A stretch of DNA of 40,849 nt from an uncultured Granulosicoccaceae bacterium (GTDB lineage: Bacteria; Pseudomonadota; Gammaproteobacteria; Granulosicoccales; Granulosicoccaceae). The position numbers were made by a program, and so were the translations under genes. The notes under the pieces were generated by a model. It saw nothing but the letters and a program-made list of their open reading frames with translations, ran no database searches and had not been told where the DNA came from. Below are positions 23,036-40,848 of this stretch, piece after piece. Position 1 is the stretch's first letter. Every line of letters starts with the position of its first letter. The stretch covers positions 1-40,849 of the forward strand of contig CAZQKJ010000001.1 of NCBI GenBank assembly GCA_964593315.1, read 5' to 3'.

Positions 23036-23562
23036 CCTGGATTATTCATGCGGAATCCGCTCGCGGAGACAATTGCACTAATTGCTCGTGTGATTGCCTG
23101 AAAAATCGTGACTCGCTGCGTGACATAAGGAGTCGCGAGAAATGTGACGGGCTTTTGGCCCAGTCGCCTCGTGAATAAGTCGGACTGGTTTGACGCAATA
23201 GGCTAGTCAGGTGCTGGCGCCACGAATCTCGCATCATCACTGGCCTGCCCAGGCCTACAAAGGCTGTGAACTGTAATAGTAATGGCCAGTAACAGCCGTG
23301 CAACCACCACCGTTCACGACGCGTGTTTGGTCACCGATCTTACTGAAACCCGTAGCAGGGCCGCCACAGGTTTTTGCAAAACTCGGGTGTGTAGCAGCAA
23401 TCCATTCTCTGCGATCGTGCGGTTTTGGGGCCTCTCCCACGCTGACACAGTGATCTGGTTCACAGATTTGCCACCACCAACCCTGCAAAACGCTGTAATG
23501 AATAAAAAGATGTGATTATTCGCGCCGTTACACCATGTAAGGTTATCGGAATAAATATAACA

Positions 23563-24594
23563 ATGTCGGACCTGACACCCAAAGGGCACATACTGATCGT
23601 CGACGACGATGAAGCAATCGTGTCCATCGCAAGTAACGTCCTTCTACAAGCAGGCTATGTAACGCTGCCCGCGTATAGTGGCGAGCAAGCGATGGAAGTG
23701 TACGCCACCAACAAGGTAGACGTAGTGCTGACTGATGTCCGTATGGACGGCATGGATGGCTTTGAACTGACAAAGCGCCTAACGCTCGTCGATCAATCAC
23801 TCAATATTATTGTAATGACGAGCTATGACAGCTACGACACTGTCTTAACTGCCCTGCAATGCGGCGCTTATGATTATTTGCAAAAACCACTGGATAATCA
23901 CGACGTATTAACAGCCGCTGTCAACAGAGCCTATTCAAGCAGTAAGCTGCAACGAGAAAATACCAATCTTCTTCTGCAACTTGAAAACAACCACGAAAAA
24001 CTATCCAAAGCCAACAGGCGCCTGGTAGACGCAAACTACAAGTTAAAACGCCTGGCCTCCACTGATACATTAACACTGCTATACAACAGACGTTACTTTG
24101 ATCAAGTATTAAAGCGTGAGTCAGATCGTCGCAACCGCTACAAATTACCATTGTCCGTGGTCATGCTCGACATAGACGATTTTAAGCAAATCAATGATCA
24201 GTACGGACACGAGGCTGGTGACAACGCTATAAAGCAAGTGGCAGTAATTCTCGACGAGTGTGCTCGAGCGGCCGATATTGTTGCGCGCTACGGCGGCGAG
24301 GAGTTTGTCGCACTGCTCCCTCAAACCACACCTGAGAACGCAAACATCTTCGCTGAACGAACACGCGCTGCCATTGAGCAAGCCCGGTTCAAGCTATCCG
24401 ACGATATTCGAGTAAATCTCACCGCAAGCCTCGGCATTGCCGGTGCGCAAGCGACAGATGGTGCAGTCGGGCCACAAAAAATGTTGTCAGCAGCAGACAA
24501 AGCGCTTTACGTTGCTAAACAAAACGGCAAGAACTGCTCAGTCAGCGCATTTGATCTCGACGACTCGGACGAAAACCCGCAAAAAGCCGCGTAG
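23563..24594 (+). CDS. Response regulator with GGDEF output (PleD/WspR-like diguanylate cyclase)
   Basis: The REC domain is present (ILIVDDDE..., DVVLTDVRMDGMDG, the phospho-acceptor Asp). A coiled-coil linker follows, then a GGDEF domain with active site RYGGEEF and an intact I-site RAAD five residues upstream. The start is at ATG 23563 (MSDLTPKG). Confidence 0.9.
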   Translation: MSDLTPKGHILIVDDDEAIVSIASNVLLQAGYVTLPAYSGEQAMEVYATNKVDVVLTDVRMDGMDGFELTKRLTLVDQSLNIIVMTSYDSYDTVLTALQCGAYDYLQKPLDNHDVLTAAVNRAYSSSKLQRENTNLLLQLENNHEKLSKANRRLVDANYKLKRLASTDTLTLLYNRRYFDQVLKRESDRRNRYKLPLSVVMLDIDDFKQINDQYGHEAGDNAIKQVAVILDECARAADIVARYGGEEFVALLPQTTPENANIFAERTRAAIEQARFKLSDDIRVNLTASLGIAGAQATDGAVGPQKMLSAADKALYVAKQNGKNCSVSAFDLDDSDENPQKAA

Positions 24595-24657: not shown

Positions 24658-26172
24658 TCAGGCGTGGCATGAAGGCCGTCTCGGGCATGCACTACTTCGG
24701 GGGCATATCACTCGTGCATCGTTTTCTATGCCTCGCTCCACCCAGGAAATATTCAGGATCTTGGCCGTTTTGATCAGTTCCTTTTTCAAGGAAGCCGGTA
24801 TGGGTGCCGAGCCGCCATTGCCACCGCAGGCCTTTTTCAAATCAGCGGCCAGTGACAGAGGATCCTGACCCTGTGCGGCAATAGCAGGATTTACATCAAC
24901 ACCTGCACATAGAACTTGAGGTGCACCGGAAAGATCATTGACTATCACTGACTCGCAGGCATAGATACGACTCTCACCTCCAACATCGAGCAATGAAATC
25001 TGTGCCGATGCATTAGCAGCTTCTTCAGTTAACTTTCTGAATACCGCCCAGTGCTGACAAGGATCCTGAACCATACGCATATTACCCCACGGCAATGGAA
25101 TACCATTACCGCGATACACCGCATTTAATCGACCCGGTGGATAAGCATCAAAGTAGTGCCAGTGTGGGTAAGGAGAAACCGATGTCATACGTCGCATAGC
25201 AATTGAATATGAAACATCTACCAGCGTACCACTGTTGACTTCATAACCATTGCGCTCAAGTAAACGCCTGAAAGGCACTTTAGGACAAAGTAGTGCAGCA
25301 GCAAAAAAGCTACACTCAAAGTCACGCCATGCCAGCATAATATCTTTTGCATCAACAGCACTTTTTTTGTTGATGTCAGTAGTCGCTTCTGTAACCCCGC
25401 TTACATAGTGCTTACTACTTAGCATCACGCTTTTTACTCCGTCACCATCGTGCAGAACCTTGTGACCTATATACACAGCAAGATCATATTTTTTACGCAC
25501 CGGATCCTTTTCAAGCGCAGAGTTAAGATGGATTGTCTTCGGAGCTTCAAAATAGGAACGCACATGACTACCACTATCAACACGCAGCTCCTCTGCCTGC
25601 TGATCCGTTAGCTTATCGAACCACTTTATTTTTACACCAAGCGATTTAACTATTTCTTCAAGTGCCTGCAGTGAAAGAGGCATCTGCTTGTGACCGATGC
25701 TTTCAGCGAGACGCTCAAGATCCGGAAACTGATTCTGGTGTGCCTCCTGGTGAGCTCTTATTAAGAGATGCGCAAACTGACGACCAGTGGTGCCGGTCTG
25801 AGACAGCATCTCCGGAATCGCGATTTGGAGAATCTCACTGGAGAAGAGGAAGCCTGGCTCGAGCGCCATGCCGGTTATCCCGCCACGACCGCCTTTGTCC
25901 GGCACCAGGCCTTCATCCACCGGCATGTCATCGAGAAACCATTCCGGGTCCTTTTGAAAAACCGACGCAATAACACCGAGCATTGCAGCGCCTGGTGTGC
26001 GCTTTCCACGCTCAATCATCGATATGTAAGAAACCGACGGCGCCGCCTCTGCATCAATTTTGATACATCGTGCAGATAAATCTTCCATCGTTAACTTGTT
26101 GCTTTTACGCAGATTTCTAATTTTTACACCCAGAAAGTGTGCGTTTCTCAACATTCGTTTTGGACTATTCAT
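24658..26172 (-). CDS. XRE-family HTH regulator of the RamB/PrpR (short-chain fatty acyl-CoA regulator, DUF2083) type
   Basis: The N-terminal HTH is LGVKIRNLRKSNKLTMEDLSARC...SYISMIERGKRTP. A long effector domain follows, then a C-terminal Cys cluster VICPRSSACPRRPSC. The gene is divergent from the glyoxylate-shunt genes, as RamB/PrpR family members usually are. Confidence 0.8.
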   Translation of the reverse strand: MNSPKRMLRNAHFLGVKIRNLRKSNKLTMEDLSARCIKIDAEAAPSVSYISMIERGKRTPGAAMLGVIASVFQKDPEWFLDDMPVDEGLVPDKGGRGGITGMALEPGFLFSSEILQIAIPEMLSQTGTTGRQFAHLLIRAHQEAHQNQFPDLERLAESIGHKQMPLSLQALEEIVKSLGVKIKWFDKLTDQQAEELRVDSGSHVRSYFEAPKTIHLNSALEKDPVRKKYDLAVYIGHKVLHDGDGVKSVMLSSKHYVSGVTEATTDINKKSAVDAKDIMLAWRDFECSFFAAALLCPKVPFRRLLERNGYEVNSGTLVDVSYSIAMRRMTSVSPYPHWHYFDAYPPGRLNAVYRGNGIPLPWGNMRMVQDPCQHWAVFRKLTEEAANASAQISLLDVGGESRIYACESVIVNDLSGAPQVLCAGVDVNPAIAAQGQDPLSLAADLKKACGGNGGSAPIPASLKKELIKTAKILNISWVERGIENDARVICPRSSACPRRPSCHA

Positions 26173-26181
26173 TTGTATATT

Positions 26182-26194
26182 TTACACTGTGTAA
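26182..26194. promoter_or_regulatory. Perfect 13-bp palindrome TTACAC-T-GTGTAA in the divergent regulator/aceA-locus promoter region (candidate operator)
   Basis: Read directly from the sequence. It sits 10 bp from the regulator start codon and is flanked by two copies of AATTTCTAT (26193-26201 and 26220-26228). Confidence 0.35.
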
Positions 26195-26281
26195 TTTCTA
26201 TTGTGCAATTATTATTTGAAATTTCTATACTTTGCTCCGTACTCGCTAACCGGCAAAAGCCGACTGCTCAGGGATCAAATT

Positions 26282-27478
26282 ATGACCGCTCATACTGACA
26301 ACAAATTCACTAAGCACCATAAGCACTCAGTTCACACTGAGCTTGCCCGATTCATTGAAAACACAGTTCTGCCTATCAGCCAAATGCAGGCGGAAGAATT
26401 CTGGAGTGTATTTTCCAGGGCACTTCAGGTTGTTGCAGACAACACACACTCGAACCTCACCGAGATACCATCAGCCTGCGTCAAGGGCGACAACAAAACT
26501 CCGGTACACACCTCCGACCTTACAATGAATGCAATAAGCCCGCGCTGGGGCAGCTTGTATGGCGCTTTGTACCGCGATGAGTTTATTCCTCACACCGCCG
26601 GGCTACGGATTGGCAACAGCGTCAATGTCGCCAGACGAGACAGGGTCGTTGGCTGTGCGAAGAACTTTCTGGACATGGCATTCCCACTGACCGAAGGATC
26701 ACACCGGGATGCTGCCGGCTATCTCGTGTACTTTAAAAACCTGCTGGTTATTCTCGCCGATGGCAGCACAACAGGCTTAAAGCAGCCAAGACAGTTCATT
26801 GGTAAAAACGGATCTGCGAGTGAACCCGAGAGCATTCTGCTTGAACACTGTGGAATGCGAGTTGAAGTGAATTTTGATCGCCATGGCATTATTGGCGAAC
26901 ACGATATTGCCAATATCGATGATATTCAGCTTGAAACTAAGAGCAACGCACTCACAGACTTCACCGCTACCACCGAGACTGAAAAGTGCGACTTATACAA
27001 GCACTGGTTTGAGCAGGCTTGTAAGACCCGTAGCAATGAAGAGTCCTCGACCAATCATAGAGCGATGCAATTACCAGAGAATAGTATCTGGGAGGTAAAA
27101 CTGTCAGGTGACACTGACACTTGCCAACTGGTTATGGATGACAACGGCAACCCTGTTCACAGTTCAATCGTTGATGCATTAGTCGCGGTATTTATCTACG
27201 CAAATAACACGCACGGAAAAACACATCTGAACATTTATATACCTGCCGGCAACGCAGAAATTAGCCCGACACACATAGAAAAGCTTGGGGAAATCCTGCT
27301 TTTAACTCAAAAAAATGCTAACGGCATCACCAAACAGCCCGCCCGCATTAAAGTTGTACCTATTAAAGTCGATACCGTGACACGCGTAGCTGACAGCTCA
27401 GTTCCGTATTGCTCTGTGAATCTGGATAACGGCGTTATCGATGCGATGGAACAGCATTTCACAGCACAAAACGGATAA
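26282..27478 (+). CDS. Malate synthase G-like protein, truncated (~398 aa) and lacking recognisable catalytic motifs
   Basis: Blocks align by eye with E. coli GlcB: RFIENTVLP..EEFW / RFVDEEVLPGTG..AAFW; SPRWGSLYGALY / NARWGSLYDALYG; FLD..FPL.EGSH; PRQFIG / PAQFVGY; ILLEHCGMRVEVNFDRHGIIGEHDIANIDDIQLE / [34 protein letters not shown]. The ORF is uninterrupted and lies 74 bp upstream of aceA with no terminator between them. I place the start at ATG 26282; the track uses TTG 26201. Confidence 0.7.
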   Translation: MTAHTDNKFTKHHKHSVHTELARFIENTVLPISQMQAEEFWSVFSRALQVVADNTHSNLTEIPSACVKGDNKTPVHTSDLTMNAISPRWGSLYGALYRDEFIPHTAGLRIGNSVNVARRDRVVGCAKNFLDMAFPLTEGSHRDAAGYLVYFKNLLVILADGSTTGLKQPRQFIGKNGSASEPESILLEHCGMRVEVNFDRHGIIGEHDIANIDDIQLETKSNALTDFTATTETEKCDLYKHWFEQACKTRSNEESSTNHRAMQLPENSIWEVKLSGDTDTCQLVMDDNGNPVHSSIVDALVAVFIYANNTHGKTHLNIYIPAGNAEISPTHIEKLGEILLLTQKNANGITKQPARIKVVPIKVDTVTRVADSSVPYCSVNLDNGVIDAMEQHFTAQNG

Positions 27479-27552
27479 CTAACAACTAATAACCATAACT
27501 GAAAGCAAACGCCGCCAGTTTTACTAATAGCTTTAATAACAGAGGTCTTTAC

Positions 27553-29151
27553 ATGAGTTCATATTCCAGTGAAATCAATAGCAGCGCCAAACTAATCTCA
27601 GCCAACGGTGACAGCTGGAGTGCTATCGATGCAGAATACGTTGCAAGAATGCGCTTACAAAATCGCTTTAAGACTGGTTTGGATATAGCGAAGTACAACG
27701 CTACGCTAATGCGTGAAGATATGGCGGCCTATGACGCAGACAATTCCAAGTACACTCAGTCACTCGGTGTGTGGCACGGATTTATCGCACAGCAGAAGAT
27801 GATCTCGGTGAAAAAACATTTCGAGACTACCCGAGGTAGTTATTTATACCTTTCAGGCTGGATGATCGCGGCGCTGCGCTCTGAGTTTGGTCCATTGCCA
27901 GATCAATCAATGCATGAAAAGACATCGGTGCCCGCATTGATCGAAGAACTCTATACTTTCTTAAAGCAGGCAGATGCAAGAGAGTTACGCCATCTGTTTA
28001 CCGAGCTGGATGATGCTCGCGCCGCTGGCAACGAAGTAAAAGCCAAGGCGGTAACAGACAAGATAGAGAATTTTGAAACTCACGTAGTCCCGATTATTGC
28101 TGACATCGATGCAGGTTTTGGTAATGAGGAAGCGACCTATCTACTAGCCAAGAAACTGATCGAAGCTGGCGCCTGTTGTTTGCAGATTGAAAATCAGGTT
28201 TCAGACGTCAAGCAGTGTGGACATCAGGACGGGAAAGTTACGGTACCGCATGAGGACTTCCTGGCTAAAATTAACGCGCTGCGCTATGCGTTTCTTGAGC
28301 TCGGTGTCGATGACGGTGTGATCGTCGCTCGTACTGATTCACTGGGTGCAGGTCTTACCCAGAAGATCCCGGTTTCACATAGCCCTGGTGATCTGGCTGA
28401 TCAATATAACGCTTTCATTGACGGTGAAGTCGTGACTGACCCTAAGCAACTCGGATCAGGTGATATCGTTATTCAACGTGATGGCGAAATGGTTAAAACC
28501 GCCCGCCTGCCGAACGGTTTGATTCAGTTTAAGCCAAATACTGGTGAAGACCGGGTTGTGCTGGATTGCATCACGGCACTTCAAAACGGTGCTGACCTGC
28601 TGTGGATTGAAACAGAGAAACCACACGTCGGGCAGATAGCCGGCATGGTTAATCGAATTAAAGAAGTTGTTCCAGACGCCAAGCTTGTTTATAACAACAG
28701 CCCGTCTTTTAACTGGACGCTCAATTTCCGCCAGCAAATTTTTGATGCATGGAAGGACGAAGGAAAAGACGTCTCGGCCTATGTTCGCGACAATCTAATG
28801 AGCGTTGACTACGATGATACTGACCTAAGCCGTGAAGCCGATGAAAAGATCCGTACTTTCCAGGCTGATGCAGCAAAAGGCGCCGGCATTTTCCATCACC
28901 TGATCACCCTGCCAACTTATCACACGGCTGCGTTGTCTACAGACACTCTGTCTAAAGGTTATTTCGGTGATCAAGGCATGCTGGCCTACGTGCGCAACGT
29001 ACAGCGTCAGGAGATCCGCAACGGACTGGCCTGCGTTAAGCACCAGGATATGGCAGGCTCCAATATTGGCGACGATCACAAAGAATACTTCTCTGGTAAT
29101 CAAGCGCTGAAAGCTTCAGGTAAAGACAACACCATGAATCAGTTCGGCTAA
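27553..29151 (+). CDS. aceA: Isocitrate lyase (long, Pseudomonas-type ~530-aa form)
   Basis: AGAGG SD is present. The product is near-colinear with my recollection of P. aeruginosa AceA (..YAARMR.QNRFKTGLDIAKY.., IADIDAGFGN.EATYLLAKK.IEAGACC.QIENQVSD.KQCGHQDGKVTVPH, ..NTMNQF). The catalytic KxCGH motif is present. Confidence 0.95.
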   Translation: MSSYSSEINSSAKLISANGDSWSAIDAEYVARMRLQNRFKTGLDIAKYNATLMREDMAAYDADNSKYTQSLGVWHGFIAQQKMISVKKHFETTRGSYLYLSGWMIAALRSEFGPLPDQSMHEKTSVPALIEELYTFLKQADARELRHLFTELDDARAAGNEVKAKAVTDKIENFETHVVPIIADIDAGFGNEEATYLLAKKLIEAGACCLQIENQVSDVKQCGHQDGKVTVPHEDFLAKINALRYAFLELGVDDGVIVARTDSLGAGLTQKIPVSHSPGDLADQYNAFIDGEVVTDPKQLGSGDIVIQRDGEMVKTARLPNGLIQFKPNTGEDRVVLDCITALQNGADLLWIETEKPHVGQIAGMVNRIKEVVPDAKLVYNNSPSFNWTLNFRQQIFDAWKDEGKDVSAYVRDNLMSVDYDDTDLSREADEKIRTFQADAAKGAGIFHHLITLPTYHTAALSTDTLSKGYFGDQGMLAYVRNVQRQEIRNGLACVKHQDMAGSNIGDDHKEYFSGNQALKASGKDNTMNQFG

Positions 29152-29175
29152 TACCGACCGTTGTGAGCACTACAA

Positions 29176-29205
29176 GGCGCAGGTTTTTACCTGCGCCTTT
29201 TTTTT
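29176..29205 (+). terminator. Rho-independent terminator of aceA
   Basis: The stem is GGCGCAGGT-tttt-ACCTGCGCC (9 bp, GC-rich), followed by T8 (29198-29205), 25 nt after the aceA stop. Confidence 0.85.
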
Positions 29206-32024: not shown

Positions 32025-32087
32025 CTAACCACGCATAAATAAAGACTGATACCCGATGCACAGCAGCGATTGAATACCGGTAGAGCC

Positions 32088-33383
32088 ATGAGTGAAGAAG
32101 AGTTATTAAGCGCAATGTTTCAGGCAGCAGTCGTGGCAGCACAGCCAGAAAAAGCACTGCCGCACTATTTGCCCGAGCCACCGGTCGGTCGCACGATTGT
32201 TATTGGCGCAGGCAAGGCTTCTGCAGAAATGGCTCGTGTTTTCGAATCTCACTGGCGCGGCCCGGTAGACAAACTATCCGGCCTGGTAGTCACCCGCTAT
32301 GACTATGCGGTGCCCTGCGAAACTATAGAGATAACCGAGGCGGCCCATCCGGTACCGGATCAAGCCGGTGAGATAGCGGCAAAGAGGATTCTCGATCTGG
32401 CAACAGATGCAACAAAAGACGATCTGATCGTATGCCTTATTTCAGGTGGTGGCTCAGCGCTGCTATCGTTACCGGCAGTGGGTCTGACACTGGACGACAA
32501 ACAGCAGCTTAATCGGGCACTCTTGAAAAGCGGTGCAAATATTCGCGAGATGAACTGCGTTCGTAAACACTTATCCGGCATCAAGGGTGGTCGACTTGCA
32601 GCTGCAGCGCACCCCGCCAGGCTCGTGACATTGATGATTTCGGATGTGCCGGATGATGATCCTGATGTCATTGCGTCCGGACCGACCGTGGTTGATCCGA
32701 GCACCTATCAAGAGGCGATTGAGATCATCAACAAGTACGCTATCAAACAACCAACAGCTGCAATCGAGCATCTTAAACACGGCGCTGCTGGTGCGCCGTC
32801 TGAAGACAACCGTTATAGCGAAACCCCGAAACCCGGAGACGCAAAACTTAACGCCAGTGAAGCACTGTTAATCGCAACCCCTCAAATGTCGCTCGAAGCA
32901 GCGGCCGATGTAGCCAGACAAAATGGCATCACACCCGTAATTCTTGGAGACAGCATTGAAGGCGAAGCCTCACAGGTTGCGATGGTACACGCGGGTATCG
33001 CAAAGCAGGTTGTCCGTCACGGCCAGCCTGTCCCAAAACCCTGTGTACTACTATCAGGGGGTGAGACTACCGTCACTGTGAAAGGCAATGGCCGTGGTGG
33101 TCGCAACGCCGAGTTTTCACTGGCACTGTCACAGGCTTTAAATGGATTGCCTGGCGTATACGCTCTGGCGGCAGATACAGATGGCATTGATGGCACCGAA
33201 GATAACGCTGGCTGTATGGTAACTCCGTCTACACTAGAGCGCGCTTGCACATCAGGACTTAACCCGGGTTCCTACTTGCAGAACAATGATGCTTACCATT
33301 TTTTTGATCAACTGGGTAATCTGCTAAAAACCGGCCCAACGCTTACCAATGTCAATGACTTCAGAGCCATTCTGATCACATGA
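32088..33383 (+). CDS. Glycerate 2-kinase / hydroxypyruvate reductase family protein (DUF4147 + MOFRL)
   Basis: Motifs read: VIGAGKAS..MA, LISGGGSALL, and SGGETTVTVKGNGRGGRNAEF. I place the start at ATG 32088; the track uses TTG 32070. Confidence 0.9.
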   Translation: MSEEELLSAMFQAAVVAAQPEKALPHYLPEPPVGRTIVIGAGKASAEMARVFESHWRGPVDKLSGLVVTRYDYAVPCETIEITEAAHPVPDQAGEIAAKRILDLATDATKDDLIVCLISGGGSALLSLPAVGLTLDDKQQLNRALLKSGANIREMNCVRKHLSGIKGGRLAAAAHPARLVTLMISDVPDDDPDVIASGPTVVDPSTYQEAIEIINKYAIKQPTAAIEHLKHGAAGAPSEDNRYSETPKPGDAKLNASEALLIATPQMSLEAAADVARQNGITPVILGDSIEGEASQVAMVHAGIAKQVVRHGQPVPKPCVLLSGGETTVTVKGNGRGGRNAEFSLALSQALNGLPGVYALAADTDGIDGTEDNAGCMVTPSTLERACTSGLNPGSYLQNNDAYHFFDQLGNLLKTGPTLTNVNDFRAILIT

Positions 33384-36482: not shown

Positions 36483-36797
36483 AGTGAGCTGAGAATGGTT
36501 TAAGACCCCAACAACATGCCGTCAAATCTCCTGCTTCTCAAGAGCCTTCAAACTATTTTACATTCAGATTACCGGATACGCGCTGCTTGCTGACCTCAGC
36601 ACTCGCAATAACACAGATGGCCGGCATCTCAACCGATACTTAGCAAAGCGCGACAACCCCGACTACTCGCTCTCAAATGGGCAGACGCTTATGATAAAAC
36701 TCTGGCAGCTAATTTGAGTCATGGTGAGCTGAAATTCTCAATACCGGCAGCGGCCAGACAGATCGCACCTCCAAAAGCATATCTCCAGAAAGCACCT

Positions 36798-38321
36798 ATG
36801 ACTCGACGCATCCGAAAAAGCCGACGGAACCGCAGCAGTGATAACGCGACTCCAGTATCCGCCTCACCCTACATTAAACGTCAATTGTCTTTCTTTGATC
36901 CACTGGATGAAGAACAACTGACAAAAATCGATGATCAGGTTGACTGGATGCTTGAAAACATCGGCTTTGCGTTTCGCGATGACCCGATAGCGCTACAGAT
37001 ATGGAGATCCGCCAAGGTAAAAATAGAGGGTGACAAGATTTTTGCGGATGCCAAATGGGTGCGTGAGCAATGCGCTAAAGCCCCGTCTGAATTCACTCAA
37101 CTGGCGCGTAACCCGGAACGTTCGGTCACCATCGGTGGACACAATCAGGTATTTGCTCCTATCTATGGTGCACCGTTTGTAAGAGACCTTGAGAGGGGCA
37201 GACGCTACGCCACGTTTGACGACTTTGAAAAACTGGTAAAGCTCACGTCAATGCACCCTAACCTGCACCACAGCGGCTTAGTGATAGCGGAACCCACCGA
37301 CATACCCGTGAGTAAACGCCACCTCGATATGGTGTACGCCCACATGACCCTGGGTGACAAACCTCACTTAGGGGCTATCACCGAGAAGAGCCGTGCACAA
37401 GACAGTGTAGACATGGCAGAGATTCTCCACGGCAAAGACACCATGGATAACAACGTTGTGATTATGGCCAACGTGAATACTAACTCGCCGTTGCTGATTG
37501 ATCGAGTAGTGACTGAAGCAATTCAAGTCTACTCTTCACGCGGTCAGGCTATGGTGATAACCCCGTTTATACTCACCGGCGCAATGGGTCCGGTATCTAC
37601 TGCCGCTGCTATTGCACAGGCTATGGCAGAGGTCATGATTACCATTGCCTTTGGCCAATTGGTAAAACCCGGCTCTCCATTTGTGATGGGTAATTTTTTG
37701 TCTTCCATGAGCCTTAAATCCGGAGCGCCCACTTTTGGTATGCCTGAGCCTGTCATCTCAAATTATATTATTGCTCAAATGGCAAGACGCTTGAACCTGC
37801 CATTGCGTTGCGGTGGCTCTTTAACAGCCTCCAAAATTGAAGACGCTCAAGCAGCCTATGAAAGCGCTGATTCCATGCACTCCACTGCGTTAGCAGGATC
37901 GCACTTTACTCTGCACGCAGCAGGCTGGCTTGAAGGTGGATTGTCCACCGGGTTTGAAAAACTCATCATGGATGCCGATCGTCTTGGCAGCTATCAAAAA
38001 GTACTCAACGGTCTGGATACCAGTGATGATCAATTCGCTCGTGACGCCTACCAGGAAGTTGAACCGGGTGGGCACTTTTTAGGTTCTGCACACACCATGC
38101 GGCATTATCAAACCGCTTTTTACGACGCCACACTCAGCGACAGTGAAAACTGCGAAAGCTGGGAAGAAGGCGGAAGCCAGGACATGCGTAAGCGTGCTTA
38201 TAAAAAGTGGAATAAAATGCTGGACGAATATGAAGCACCACCCATGGATCCTGCAACCAGGGAAGCGCTGGATGCACACATAGCAAAACGCAAGGAAGAG
38301 TTGCCAGACGCGTGGTATTGA
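36798..38321 (+). CDS. Trimethylamine methyltransferase (MttB) superfamily protein, non-pyrrolysine member
   Basis: Family blocks are present: NVNTNSPLL.D, PFILTGAMGPVSTAAAIAQA, SGAPTFGMPE, HAAGWLEGGLSTGFEKLIMDAD and VEPGGHFLGSAHTMRHYQTAFY. There is no in-frame TAG. I place the start at ATG 36798 (MTRRIRKSRRNR..); the track uses TTG 36714. Confidence 0.9.
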   Translation: MTRRIRKSRRNRSSDNATPVSASPYIKRQLSFFDPLDEEQLTKIDDQVDWMLENIGFAFRDDPIALQIWRSAKVKIEGDKIFADAKWVREQCAKAPSEFTQLARNPERSVTIGGHNQVFAPIYGAPFVRDLERGRRYATFDDFEKLVKLTSMHPNLHHSGLVIAEPTDIPVSKRHLDMVYAHMTLGDKPHLGAITEKSRAQDSVDMAEILHGKDTMDNNVVIMANVNTNSPLLIDRVVTEAIQVYSSRGQAMVITPFILTGAMGPVSTAAAIAQAMAEVMITIAFGQLVKPGSPFVMGNFLSSMSLKSGAPTFGMPEPVISNYIIAQMARRLNLPLRCGGSLTASKIEDAQAAYESADSMHSTALAGSHFTLHAAGWLEGGLSTGFEKLIMDADRLGSYQKVLNGLDTSDDQFARDAYQEVEPGGHFLGSAHTMRHYQTAFYDATLSDSENCESWEEGGSQDMRKRAYKKWNKMLDEYEAPPMDPATREALDAHIAKRKEELPDAWY

Positions 38322-38403
38322 TATCACGCTGCGTGGCACTGATTGCAGCACCTCTCAAAACTGATGCCAGTCTAATATCAAATAATTTATATCAGGGATT
38401 AAC

Positions 38404-40848
38404 ATGCCAGACTTTATAAAAGAAGGAGCAACCAGAGACGCATTACCCGGTCATGCCAAGGTTGTGATTGTAGGCGGTGGTGTTGTCGGTTGTTCAATTT
38501 TGTTTCATCTGGCAAAGTTTGGCTGGAAAGACACAGTGCTGCTGGAACGCGATGAACTGACTTCCGGTTCAAGCTGGCATGCTGCAGGTCAAATTCACAC
38601 CATTAGCTCAGACCCTAATATATCGCGCCTGCAAAGCTATACAATTAACTTGTACAAAGAGATAGAAGAGCTTTCAGGCCAGTCAATCGGGTTGAATCTG
38701 ACTGGCGGCTTTTATCTCGCATCCAATAAAACCTGGTATGACTATCTCAAGCGCGAACGATCGAAAGCACGATACATGGGTCTTGAACAGGAATGGATCT
38801 CACCTAAGGAAGTGGCAGAGCGCCATCCGTTAATAGACCCCAAACACTATATAGCTGCACTATGGGATGATCAGGATGGTGACCTTGATCCTTCCGGTAC
38901 CACCTACGCTTTCGCGAAAGCCGCCAGACATTACGGCGGTCAATACTTCACTCATACACCAGTCACTGCCACCACCCAACGCGCTGATGGCAGTTGGGAT
39001 GTTGTCACCGACAAAGGCACAGTCAATGCCGAACACGTGGTTAACTGTGGCGGGCTCTGGGCCCGTGAGGTGGGCCGACTTGCCGGACTCAACTTACCGG
39101 TACAGCCGATGGAGCATCATTACCTGCTGACTGAAACCATTGATGAGATAAAAAACTCAAGCTCACGCCTACCTTGCGGCATTGACTACAACGCCAATAT
39201 TTACTTCCGTCAGGAACGCGATGGCCTGCTGCTTGGCACTTATGAACCGGTAGGGGTTCCATGGCGCGTCGATGGCACACCGTGGGACTTTGGCCATGAG
39301 CTTTTAAACCCGAATCTTGAACACATAGCAGATCGATTAGAACTCGCCTTTGATCGCATCCCTGCACTGGCTGAAGCAGGTATCAGACAAACCATCAACG
39401 GGCCATTTACATTCGGCCCGGACGGCAACCCGATGATTGGCCCGGTGCCCGGCATGCACAACTACTGGTGTGCTGTCGGTGTGATGGCAGGCTTTTGTCA
39501 GGGTGGAGGTGTCGGGTTAACCATGGCGGAGTGGATGATAGACGGTGAGCCGTCTATTGATGTCTGGGCAATGGATGTTGCACGATTCGGCAACTGGGCC
39601 TCACCCGACTGGGGCACAGTCAAGTCAACCGAAAACTATGAACGCCGGTTTGTCATGACCTTCCCTAACGAAACCTTACCCAAAGGACGCTTGCAGCAAA
39701 CCACCTCACTCTATGACAGATTGATTGCCAAAGGTGCACGCATGGGACAGTCATTCGGACTGGAGCACGCACTGTGGTTTGCAGACAATCCGCAAGACGC
39801 TTATGAAGACCCAACCTTCGAACGCAACCGTTCACACGACTATGTCGCACGAGAAGTCGCAGCCGTACGCAGTGGTGTGGCGGGAATTGAAATCGCCAAC
39901 TTTGCAAAGCATGTAATTAAGGGAGCGGGAGCACGCGCATGGCTTGATCAAACCATGGCCGGGCACATTCCAAAACCCGGGCGCATCGCACTGACGCCCA
40001 TGCTGACACAGAAAGGCAAACTGTACGGTGATCTCACCGTCGCCTGCTACGCAGATGATCACTTTATGTTATTTGGTTCAGGTGCCATGCAAGATGCACA
40101 CAGCCGCTGGTTTGCAAAATCACTTCCAGAGAATGTCACCCACGAAAACCAGACCGGTGAATGGCACGGCATAGCCTTGTCAGGCCCAAAGTCTCGAGAG
40201 TTGCTGGATCGCATTTCTCGCGATGATGTATCTGCAGATGCTTTGAAGTTTAGAGATACCCGGCAGACTTACGTTGGAGGAGTACCTGTGATACTCAACC
40301 GGCTTAGCTTTTCAGGAGAACTTGGCTATGAGATTTATTGCCGACCGCAGTATCTGATTCGGCTGGCTGAAGCGATAGAAGAAGCGGGCTCGGATCTCGG
40401 GTACCGCTGGTACGGCAATCGCACCCTGATGAGTTTGCGGCTTGAAAAGGCCTGGGGAGCCTGGGGCCTCGAGTTCCGGCCGGATTTCAACGCCATAGAG
40501 TCAGGCATGGATGTTTTCATCAACTGGGACAAAGACTTTACCGGCCGGGACGCGACCCTCAAATTCAAAGAACAGGGCGTCTCGCGCCGACTGGTCACGC
40601 TTATTATCGACTCCCCGATTGATGTCACTCTGGATGAGGCGATACTCAAAGATGGTGAGGCGATCGGCTATGTCTCATCAGGTGGCTATGCCCACCATAT
40701 TGGCAAGTCCATGGCGATGGGTTACGTGGCGACAGAGCACGCAAGCCCCGGAACCCGACTACAGGTCGAGATCATCGGAGAAATGTACCCGGCAGAGGTG
40801 CAAGGTACGCCGCTGTACGATCCACAAGGTGCACGCATGCGAGGCTGA
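38404..40848 (+). CDS. Dimethylglycine/sarcosine dehydrogenase-like flavoprotein (FAD oxidoreductase fused to a GcvT-type folate-binding domain)
   Basis: The dinucleotide fold is VVIVGGGVVGCS. SSWHAAGQ is the flavinylation-type His context. The C-terminal aminomethyltransferase-like domain has GYEIYC and G.VSSGGY.H..GKS.AMGYV. The gene is complete, with its stop at 40846-40848. Confidence 0.9.
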   Translation: MPDFIKEGATRDALPGHAKVVIVGGGVVGCSILFHLAKFGWKDTVLLERDELTSGSSWHAAGQIHTISSDPNISRLQSYTINLYKEIEELSGQSIGLNLTGGFYLASNKTWYDYLKRERSKARYMGLEQEWISPKEVAERHPLIDPKHYIAALWDDQDGDLDPSGTTYAFAKAARHYGGQYFTHTPVTATTQRADGSWDVVTDKGTVNAEHVVNCGGLWAREVGRLAGLNLPVQPMEHHYLLTETIDEIKNSSSRLPCGIDYNANIYFRQERDGLLLGTYEPVGVPWRVDGTPWDFGHELLNPNLEHIADRLELAFDRIPALAEAGIRQTINGPFTFGPDGNPMIGPVPGMHNYWCAVGVMAGFCQGGGVGLTMAEWMIDGEPSIDVWAMDVARFGNWASPDWGTVKSTENYERRFVMTFPNETLPKGRLQQTTSLYDRLIAKGARMGQSFGLEHALWFADNPQDAYEDPTFERNRSHDYVAREVAAVRSGVAGIEIANFAKHVIKGAGARAWLDQTMAGHIPKPGRIALTPMLTQKGKLYGDLTVACYADDHFMLFGSGAMQDAHSRWFAKSLPENVTHENQTGEWHGIALSGPKSRELLDRISRDDVSADALKFRDTRQTYVGGVPVILNRLSFSGELGYEIYCRPQYLIRLAEAIEEAGSDLGYRWYGNRTLMSLRLEKAWGAWGLEFRPDFNAIESGMDVFINWDKDFTGRDATLKFKEQGVSRRLVTLIIDSPIDVTLDEAILKDGEAIGYVSSGGYAHHIGKSMAMGYVATEHASPGTRLQVEIIGEMYPAEVQGTPLYDPQGARMRG

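Follow-up and report, generated by a model that had tools for sequence, protein, structure and literature searches.

The DNA analysed here, called the window throughout, is a stretch of 40,849 nucleotides (contig CAZQKJ010000001.1, assembly GCA_964593315.1) from an uncultured Granulosicoccaceae bacterium. It carries an open reading frame (ORF) whose 398-amino-acid (aa) product is related to malate synthase G (MSG, encoded by glcB) and is predicted to lack its catalytic activity. This MSG-like gene is located between a divergently oriented regulator gene and aceA, the gene for isocitrate lyase (ICL), and the locus is composed of the following features.

24658-26172, minus strand: transcription regulator of the DUF3612 family, 504 aa, divergent from the MSG-like gene (Pfam DUF3612, E 1.5e-89; HTH_3, 1e-9; Peptidase_M78, 2e-6)
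26173-26210, plus strand: 38-bp element of three direct TGTrAAATT repeats with a 14-bp period, abutting the regulator start codon and conserved in the corresponding spacers; candidate operator
26226-26231, plus strand: TATACT, -10-like box, by consensus match only, of the promoter that probably serves the MSG-like gene and aceA
26270-26274, plus strand: AGGGA, ribosome-binding (Shine-Dalgarno)-like site 7 nt 5' of the ATG, as read from the sequence
26282-27478, plus strand: gene for the MSG-derived, putatively non-catalytic protein, ATG start, TAA stop, 398 aa
26300-26446, plus strand: vestige of the MSG N-terminus, aa 7-55, equivalent to E. coli GlcB 2-55, with invariant F40 and W41 (hhalign and MAFFT; pLDDT of 83-91 at aa 11-50 in the AlphaFold2 model)
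26534-27001, plus strand: conserved core with the alpha/beta insertion domain, aa 85-240, equivalent to E. coli GlcB ~131-290 (invariant columns, substitution rates and PF20658)
27002-27478, plus strand: rapidly diverging tail, aa 241-398, left over from the first strands and helices of the TIM barrel and without the catalytic motifs (alignments and substitution rates)
27479-27552, plus strand: 74-bp spacer between the MSG-like gene and aceA, with no terminator-like site on the plus strand
27553-29151, plus strand: aceA, ICL of the long type, 532 aa (NCBIfam NF005074, 1033 bits against a cut-off of 446)
29174-29199, plus strand: strong intrinsic-terminator-like hairpin closing the MSG-like/aceA unit, an 11-bp stem with seven GC pairs followed by a T run

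The start of the MSG-like gene was placed at the ATG at 26282, from which the N-termini of the orthologs line up. A longer frame from TTG at 26201 was also considered and rejected; it is not supported by the ortholog N-termini and is unlikely because its reading would enter the conserved operator-like element, which it overlaps.

The homology of this ORF to MSG is far above chance level. PF20658 (MSG_insertion) was the sole Pfam match of the 398-aa protein (aa 115-189, E 2e-24), and the MS_N, MS_TIM-barrel and MS_C domains were not found by the same search. The NCBIfam equivalogs of MSG, NF002825 and TIGR01345, matched with 156.5 and 138.1 bits (E 1e-45 and 4e-40), below their cut-offs for functional MSG of 565 and 989 bits. 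A phmmer search of the PDB returned MSG chains only (E 1.3e-31), aligning residues 73-245 with MSG 122-298, and the hhalign comparison of a profile of 25 family members with a profile of 25 real MSGs gave a probability of 100 and an E-value of 3.7e-70 over residues 7-392, corresponding to E. coli GlcB 2-549. When AlphaFold2 models of the whole protein and of aa 100-250 were compared with the PDB by Foldseek, MSG was the only protein among the 50 matches listed per model. The whole-protein model (pLDDT 61.6) had a best match to MSG with E 1e-16, its tail being of low confidence (pLDDT <50 at aa 250-268, 345-353 and 361-390). The model of aa 100-250 (pLDDT 73.2) matched MSG with a TMq of 0.61-0.64 and 40% identity over 110-119 columns. 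The MSG homology proposed in the original prediction, which was made from the sequence of the window without database searches, was thus confirmed by hidden Markov model (HMM) search, profile-profile alignment and fold comparison. Its description of the protein as matching the first ~430 residues of MSG stood as to the homology but not as to a plain truncation, as internal deletions are also present and the last motif is placed at ~535-549.

Relative to E. coli GlcB, the protein keeps residues 2-55 and ~120-298 and is without ~56-115 (the clasp helices) and part of ~300-318. The last conserved motif of the family, P.TAVI.AM.SHGYDV, was positioned at E. coli ~535-549 by both MAFFT and hhalign with low confidence; beyond about E. 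coli residue 549 nothing aligns, and the C-terminal plug is absent in its entirety. In E. coli numbering, the DCEDS motif is replaced by DFT through a four-residue deletion, with the loss of D273 and with E272 variable in the family, and the IVKPKMHGP and GIMDEERR motifs are gone. The essential residues of E. coli GlcB, which we take to be Arg338, Glu427, Asp455 and Asp631, correspond to L, T, P and a gap in the window protein. Among 25 family members, R338 is replaced by L, S or T, E427 is variable, D455 is replaced by A, P or T, and the column of D631 does not exist. The 11 genuine MSGs aligned with them, GlcB of E. coli and ten further full-length enzymes, do not vary at the catalytic positions. 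The alignment of the 25 family members with these 11 MSGs agreed with the earlier claims that the three motifs (LDCEDS, IVKPKMHGP and GIMDEERR), the second Mg ligand and the C-terminal plug had been lost. Read from these residues, the 398-aa protein is an MSG derivative without the catalytic machinery and is predicted to be inactive as a malate synthase.

In 16 of 16 orthologous loci of the Granulosicoccaceae type the ORF is intact; it encodes 362-423 aa and stops 30-170 bp 5' of aceA. Over 24 family proteins, which are 31-46% identical to the window protein, 40 columns are invariant, nearly all of them within aa 89-215. The ratio of nonsynonymous to synonymous substitution rates (dN/dS) of the MSG-like gene was 0.082 between loci L149 and L001, the least saturated pair (dS ~1.0), when compared with 0.013 for ICL and 0.009 for the regulator of the same pair. 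Divided by segment, the MSG-like gene in this pair gave 0.027 for the core, 0.13 for the N-terminal part and 0.12 for the tail. Other pairs in the family showed ratios of 0.09-0.21 at saturated dS, and over the pairs the core ranged from 0.027 to 0.09 and the tail from 0.12 to 0.33. The ratio is far below 1 in each segment, and the strongest selection in the window protein falls on the alpha/beta insertion domain. The neighbouring proteins change 6-10 times more slowly than the MSG-like protein; the window and L001 share 88% identity in the regulator, 90% in ICL and 78% in the MatE protein, but 46.5% in the MSG-like protein. These rates indicate that the gene is kept by purifying selection and is not dead, as had been supposed from the open frame, and both the stop-codon check on the orthologs (16/16 intact) and dN/dS in the least saturated pair agreed with that supposition. 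A homolog of an active enzyme that is without the catalytic residues, is under purifying selection and is conserved in orthologs has the properties by which a pseudoenzyme can be recognised from sequence; the 398-aa protein shows all of these and is a putative pseudoenzyme.

The synteny of related loci gave an indication of the origin of the gene. The ~400-aa form, scanned for with one genome per species, was present in metagenome-assembled genomes (MAGs) carrying the label Granulosicoccaceae or, in one case, Chromatiales, and in the assembly 'Chromatiales bacterium ex Bugula neritina'. The order of genes at these loci is constant, with the regulator divergent from the MSG-like gene, ICL downstream of the latter, and MatE and GST genes then following on the opposite strand. 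This form is unnamed in databases, the one source name seen being 'hypothetical protein'. In the Cellvibrionaceae MAG locus L019, a regulator 62% identical to that of the window is divergent from a full-length 740-aa MSG with all motifs, followed by a long ICL. The complete genome of Marinomonas posidonica (L066) has the same order with a 723-aa MSG containing all four Pfam MSG domains, and the arrangement of regulator, full-length MSG and ICL was also found in ten metagenome loci. All 12 of these regulator-linked full-length MSGs retain D270, E272, D273, R338, E427, D455 and D631. Judged from gene order, the window gene stands where glcB stood in an ancestral arrangement, in which a DUF3612 regulator gene was divergent from glcB and aceA followed. 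By its position the gene descends from glcB and marks one step in a reduction that occurred repeatedly, as seen from L019, L066 and the loci with reduced forms; it is not a one-off paralog, wedged between two genes as the original prediction had it.

Reduced forms of MSG (hereafter relics) of other lengths were found beside the same regulator. The 514-aa protein P0036 (L153:2106-3650) corresponds to MSG 1-467 with GIMDEERR changed to GLMASEST and E427 lost; it adjoins a DUF3612 regulator and is followed by an ICL 82% identical to that of the window. A mid-length form of 332-372 aa corresponds to MSG 2-429 with deletions. Stand-alone insertion-domain proteins, divergent to a DUF3612 regulator and with no ICL nearby, occur in Alkalimonas (six loci), Rheinheimera marina, Shewanella eurypsychrophilus and two more organisms, and the name given to these short forms by NCBI is 'malate synthase', through NF006511/PRK08951. 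Short forms at L050:9854-10390, L058:6001-6495 and L065:6280-6795 and at 47 metagenome loci have 111-205 aa and miss the whole catalytic apparatus. In Granulosicoccus sp. 3-233 (L064:4176-6851) and at L070, the next gene downstream of a relic of ~111-113 aa encodes monomeric isocitrate dehydrogenase (PF03971) in place of ICL, and the regulator/relic module therefore adjoins either enzyme of the isocitrate branch point. The lengths form a series of about 740, 514, ~400, ~335-370, 160-205, 111-122 and 0 aa, and only residues ~180-252 of the Marinomonas MSG are common to all reduced forms. The clade of the window itself holds ~400-aa forms, ~113-aa forms and complete losses.

The short and mid-length relics showed dN/dS of 0.03-0.14 in pairs with unsaturated dS (0.15-0.9). 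Core identity within two relic groups was 0.63 and 0.51, when compared with 0.60 and 0.54 within two groups of real MSGs. These values, obtained from sequence comparison, indicate that the insertion domain stays constrained after the loss of catalysis. The relic core is closer to the regulator-linked MSGs (0.47-0.48) than to other MSGs (0.35-0.42). Relics and regulator-linked MSGs share the strand motif VYYQHLLaFF.DG, where other MSGs have D-D-G-G-L.V.L.NG; the shared motif may be a phylogenetic signal only.

The regulator is composed of an XRE helix-turn-helix (HTH), a weak M78/IrrE-like middle part and a Cys-rich C-terminal DUF3612 domain, and is 57-92% identical to the regulators of all related loci. 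It belongs to a family with more than 3867 protein clusters matching at E<1e-30, from marine and other gammaproteobacteria. Nine Cys residues (C36, C296, C372, C406, C422, C449, C490, C496 and C502) are invariant across 14 diverse regulators, and the M78-like part has an H-x3-H motif (IGHKVLH) with the catalytic Glu missing. Because of the invariant Cys residues and of H-x3-H without the catalytic Glu, these features suggest a metal- or Fe-S-sensing domain and not a protease. The RamB/PrpR-like assignment made earlier did not extend beyond the HTH; the RamB model NF038139 matched in this part only (21.1 bits against a cut-off of 700 bits), a PDB search found no relatives beyond the HTH, and the C-terminal domain is that of the separate DUF3612 family. 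The regulator ATG has no canonical Shine-Dalgarno sequence, because the conserved element extends up to the start codon. A gene for a response-regulator-GGDEF diguanylate cyclase (23512-24594, plus strand) lies directly past the 3' end of the regulator gene on the opposite strand, a position conserved in L001 and L006 and not in L004. The one experimental clue to this regulator family is that the DUF3612 gene was mutated in two independent lines of Vibrio natriegens evolved on acetate (bioRxiv 10.1101/2025.06.23.661028). These mutations fit a role of the regulator in acetate metabolism and are silent on the relic.

The 38-bp element has the consensus TTGTAAAATTCACACTGTrwAATTTyTATTGTGAAATT, which was found with seven or fewer mismatches in 79 of the 82 distinct spacers between regulator and partner, drawn from several orders of gammaproteobacteria, nearly always 0-2 nt from the regulator start codon. 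The window copy has four mismatches, and no second site was detected in the window within 12 mismatches. A TAnAnT box stands at a fixed distance past the element in 56 of the 79 spacers. The element is probably the operator of the DUF3612 regulator, as a candidate defined by conservation, and would overlap the promoter of the MSG-like gene and aceA. The absence of a plus-strand terminator-like site in the spacer at 27479-27552 is consistent with co-transcription of the two genes; the first strong one lies 3' of aceA at 29174-29199, in line with the operon position, 74 bp before aceA without a terminator, that had been noted earlier. The 99%-identical metagenome contig L148 has a run of N (1301-1457, a scaffold gap) exactly in this spacer, which is therefore not comparable with that of the window. 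An Rfam search over the whole window detected no RNA family.

Neither tblastn, with AceB and GlcB of E. coli and two MSGs from gammaproteobacteria as queries, nor Pfam searches of the other ORFs revealed a malate synthase A or G in the rest of the 40.8-kb window, and the earlier statement that no functional malate synthase is present in the window held. A glycerate-kinase-type gene (DUF4147 and MOFRL domains; 32070-33383, plus strand) is located ~3 kb 3' of aceA, and most related loci have it in the corresponding place with 72-77% identity. It could hint that glyoxylate is used through glycerate, should a malate synthase really be lacking, or could reflect plain synteny.

The association between the regulator and the insertion domain was surveyed from the regulator side. 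A scan with the alignment of 14 regulators gave 80 metagenome loci, to which three further loci were added, and an insertion-domain HMM was run on all stop-to-stop ORFs of the 83 loci, 77 of which have at least 600 bp upstream of the regulator. A divergent insertion-domain ORF was located 36-283 bp from the regulator start in 67 of these 77 loci (87%), and the divergent position was occupied as follows.

Short form (111-205 aa): 47 loci
Mid-length form (332-372 aa): 3 loci
Full-length MSG (723-743 aa), each followed by ICL: 11 loci
Insertion-domain ORF cut by the contig end: 6 loci
No insertion-domain ORF: 10 loci

When the survey was started from the relic side, the regulator was present at every locus with sufficient flank. 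The genes downstream of the short relics are unrelated, often convergent, and include no recurrent third gene, and therefore the constant unit consists of the regulator and the relic. Regulators with a full-length MSG as partner were scattered over a neighbour-joining tree of 103 distinct regulators, and the number of maximal clades without full-length MSG was four in 26, five in 17, six in 6 and nine in 1 of 50 bootstrap replicates. As a truncated gene cannot regrow, these numbers imply that the reduction arose in at least about four regulator lineages, provided that regulator and partner were co-inherited. The relic architectures differ between the groups, which fits independent reductions.

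To our knowledge, no function has been assigned to the alpha/beta insertion domain since the first MSG structures, and we know of no part played by it in the MSG substrate site. We propose, with confidence about evenly balanced for and against, that the window ORF is a selectively kept pseudoenzyme derived from glcB that serves as a non-catalytic accessory of a DUF3612-controlled acetate/glyoxylate circuit and is co-transcribed with aceA. The regulator would bind the triple repeat and control the divergent promoter, and the relic, together with aceA where present, would therefore be its primary target. With its insertion domain the relic would either partner the DUF3612 regulator or modulate it by feedback, or else would serve it as an adaptor that binds a ligand, and it would be neither an enzyme nor an ICL subunit. 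Where the full enzyme exists, MSG itself would carry the same second function. A broader version of this proposal, which we put forward only tentatively, is that the insertion domain is a regulatory module for DUF3612 factors and MSG a trigger enzyme that has been repeatedly whittled to domain-only co- or anti-regulators once catalysis became dispensable; the window protein would then be a mid-stage example of this process.

Several observations weigh against the proposed accessory role. The action of the relic on the regulator is deduced from their neighbourhood, and the adjacency may mean only that the relic is the oldest target of the regulator with a function of its own. The association is also partly inherited synteny and not independent evidence. 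Ten of the 77 regulator loci are without a relic, and in eight of these (L073, L074, L081, L089, L094, L095, L096 and L104) ICL is directly divergent at the operator, so that the regulator can work without the relic; these eight loci mark the end of the reduction series. The N-terminal vestige and the tail are also somewhat constrained in the family of the window (0.12-0.13 in the least saturated pair), so that other parts besides the insertion domain may be needed for the function in Granulosicoccaceae. As for the rates themselves, dS is saturated for most pairs in this family, for which reason the L149-L001 pair was relied on, and the comparison of the window with L148 gave five nonsynonymous and two synonymous changes, too few to be informative and without sign of strong constraint. 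The count of reductions depends on a tree built by neighbour-joining only, which assumes co-inheritance of both genes.

The most serious competitor, though an unlikely one in our estimation, is that the relic is an autonomous protein which has its own non-regulatory function through the insertion domain, such as metabolite or protein binding, and is merely the most conserved target of the regulator. Purifying selection on the relic would be explained equally by this, as would its constant position behind the operator-like element and the ten regulator loci that do without it. A target is nevertheless expected to drift away from its regulator sometimes, and no such case was seen among the loci reached from the relic side. 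The fold of the domain, matching MSG alone among the PDB matches listed, also hints at no independent function.

A role as an ICL partner, which the original prediction suggested, or as a scaffold or chaperone of ICL, in which a contact between MSG and ICL outlived catalysis, appears rather improbable. Such a role would suit the window family, where the gene precedes aceA with no terminator between in 16 of 16 Granulosicoccaceae-type loci (co-transcription being predicted) and where more of MSG than the insertion domain is kept and constrained; full-length MSG in regulator-linked loci is likewise always followed by ICL. However, 44 of the 47 short relics have no adjacent ICL, those of L064 and L070 are followed by isocitrate dehydrogenase, and only the DUF3612 regulator is always adjacent. 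Between the orthologous Granulosicoccaceae-type loci, ICL shares 83-90% identity while the relic shares 30-47%, unlike what is expected for a tight complex. Of the competing explanations, this one lost most ground, since relics are kept at loci without ICL.

It is very improbable that the protein has no function, the ORF being kept for the translation of aceA (by coupling or mRNA protection) or being a slowly decaying pseudogene. Its fast evolution relative to the neighbours and the graded deletions, up to complete loss in some lineages, would agree with decay, but the low dN/dS in each segment and the 40 columns invariant over such divergent proteins would not. Neither would the short relics, which are monocistronic and often face a convergent gene and yet show dN/dS of 0.03-0.14. 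A random frame of 400 codons would stay open with a probability of ~5e-9, (61/64)^400, whereas 16 of 16 were open. Least credible of all is a remodelled site that still acts as an enzyme or substrate binder, for example a glyoxylate/acetyl-coenzyme A (CoA) sensor, much as the original prediction suggested: the RWGSLY.ALY segment (E. coli ~134-143) is kept and a vestige of the 535-549 loop is possible, both presumably near the CoA site in GlcB-CoA structures, but all Mg ligands, R338 and the catalytic base are lost with replacements not conserved in the family, the positions of R125, Y126, P536 and P538 vary, part of the TIM barrel is missing, and the alignment of the tail is of low confidence.

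The proposed accessory of the DUF3612 circuit was further compared with known systems. It shares common ancestry and fold with MSG (GlcB; TIGR01345/NF002825; PDB 1D8C, 1N8I and 5OAS), the N-terminal segment, insertion domain and first barrel elements being alignable, and its gene has the same position as glcB in the Marinomonas and Cellvibrionaceae loci. It differs from MSG in length (398 against ~725 aa), in the absence of the clasp helices, about half of the barrel and the C-terminal plug, and in its much faster evolution outside the insertion domain. The NF006511 (PRK08951) proteins of ~160-190 aa, known from Alkalimonas, Rheinheimera, Shewanella and others, have the same domain with 35-58% core identity under purifying selection. 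They similarly consist of the insertion domain with nothing catalytic and have a divergent DUF3612 regulator with the triple-repeat element between, a pairing that was established here. The window protein exceeds twice their length, still has the N-terminal segment of MSG and some of the barrel, and has aceA downstream of its gene; its score for NF006511 was 133.2 bits (aa 112-244) against a cut-off of 173, the Alkalimonas member itself scoring 158. The family of the window is separate from NF006511 and centred on Granulosicoccaceae.

The neighbouring regulator resembles RamB and PrpR, the ScfR-type regulators of acetate and propionate metabolism in Actinobacteria, in its XRE HTH, IrrE/M78-like middle part, Cys-rich C-terminus and location near glyoxylate-shunt genes, but only its HTH matches them, and its C-terminal DUF3612 domain has no solved relative. 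We know of no pairing of RamB or PrpR with an MSG-domain protein. Trigger enzymes and moonlighting regulators are exemplified by PutA and aconitase. The proposed logic, a regulatory function of an enzyme outliving its catalysis, is that of trigger enzymes and pseudoenzyme regulators, although the regulatory role of MSG or its insertion domain is hypothetical and derived from gene neighbourhood and selection. A literature search found no publication on these proteins, PF20658, PRK08951 or the DUF3612 pairing. The domain model, the misnamed short-form family and the concepts of pseudoenzymes and moonlighting are already known; the module of regulator and insertion domain, the candidate operator and the recurrent reduction series singling out one enzyme domain appear to be new.

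Farther along the window, 36714-40848 on the plus strand encodes a methyltransferase of the MttB family (PF06253, E 7e-210) followed by a DAO and GCV_T fusion resembling dimethylglycine/sarcosine oxidase. This pair looks like a pathway of methylated-amine catabolism unrelated to the MSG-like gene.

On the proposed reading, the many genes named 'malate synthase' through NF006511/PRK08951 and the ~400-aa 'hypothetical proteins' are predicted to be unable to supply malate synthase activity, and the name 'malate synthase' is misleading for both. Counting the relics as enzymes would wrongly close the glyoxylate shunt in metabolic reconstructions of Granulosicoccaceae and related algal and bryozoan symbionts. 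The reduction series offers a clean natural series for the study of the conversion of an enzyme to a pseudoenzyme. If the proposed role is true, it would define a two-gene module, composed of a DUF3612 regulator and an MSG-insertion-domain protein, with a precise candidate operator, and this module would bear on the use of acetate and fatty acids, including that by strains engineered for acetate. It would also give a testable function to a conserved enzyme domain and tie MSG to the transcriptional control of the isocitrate branch point.

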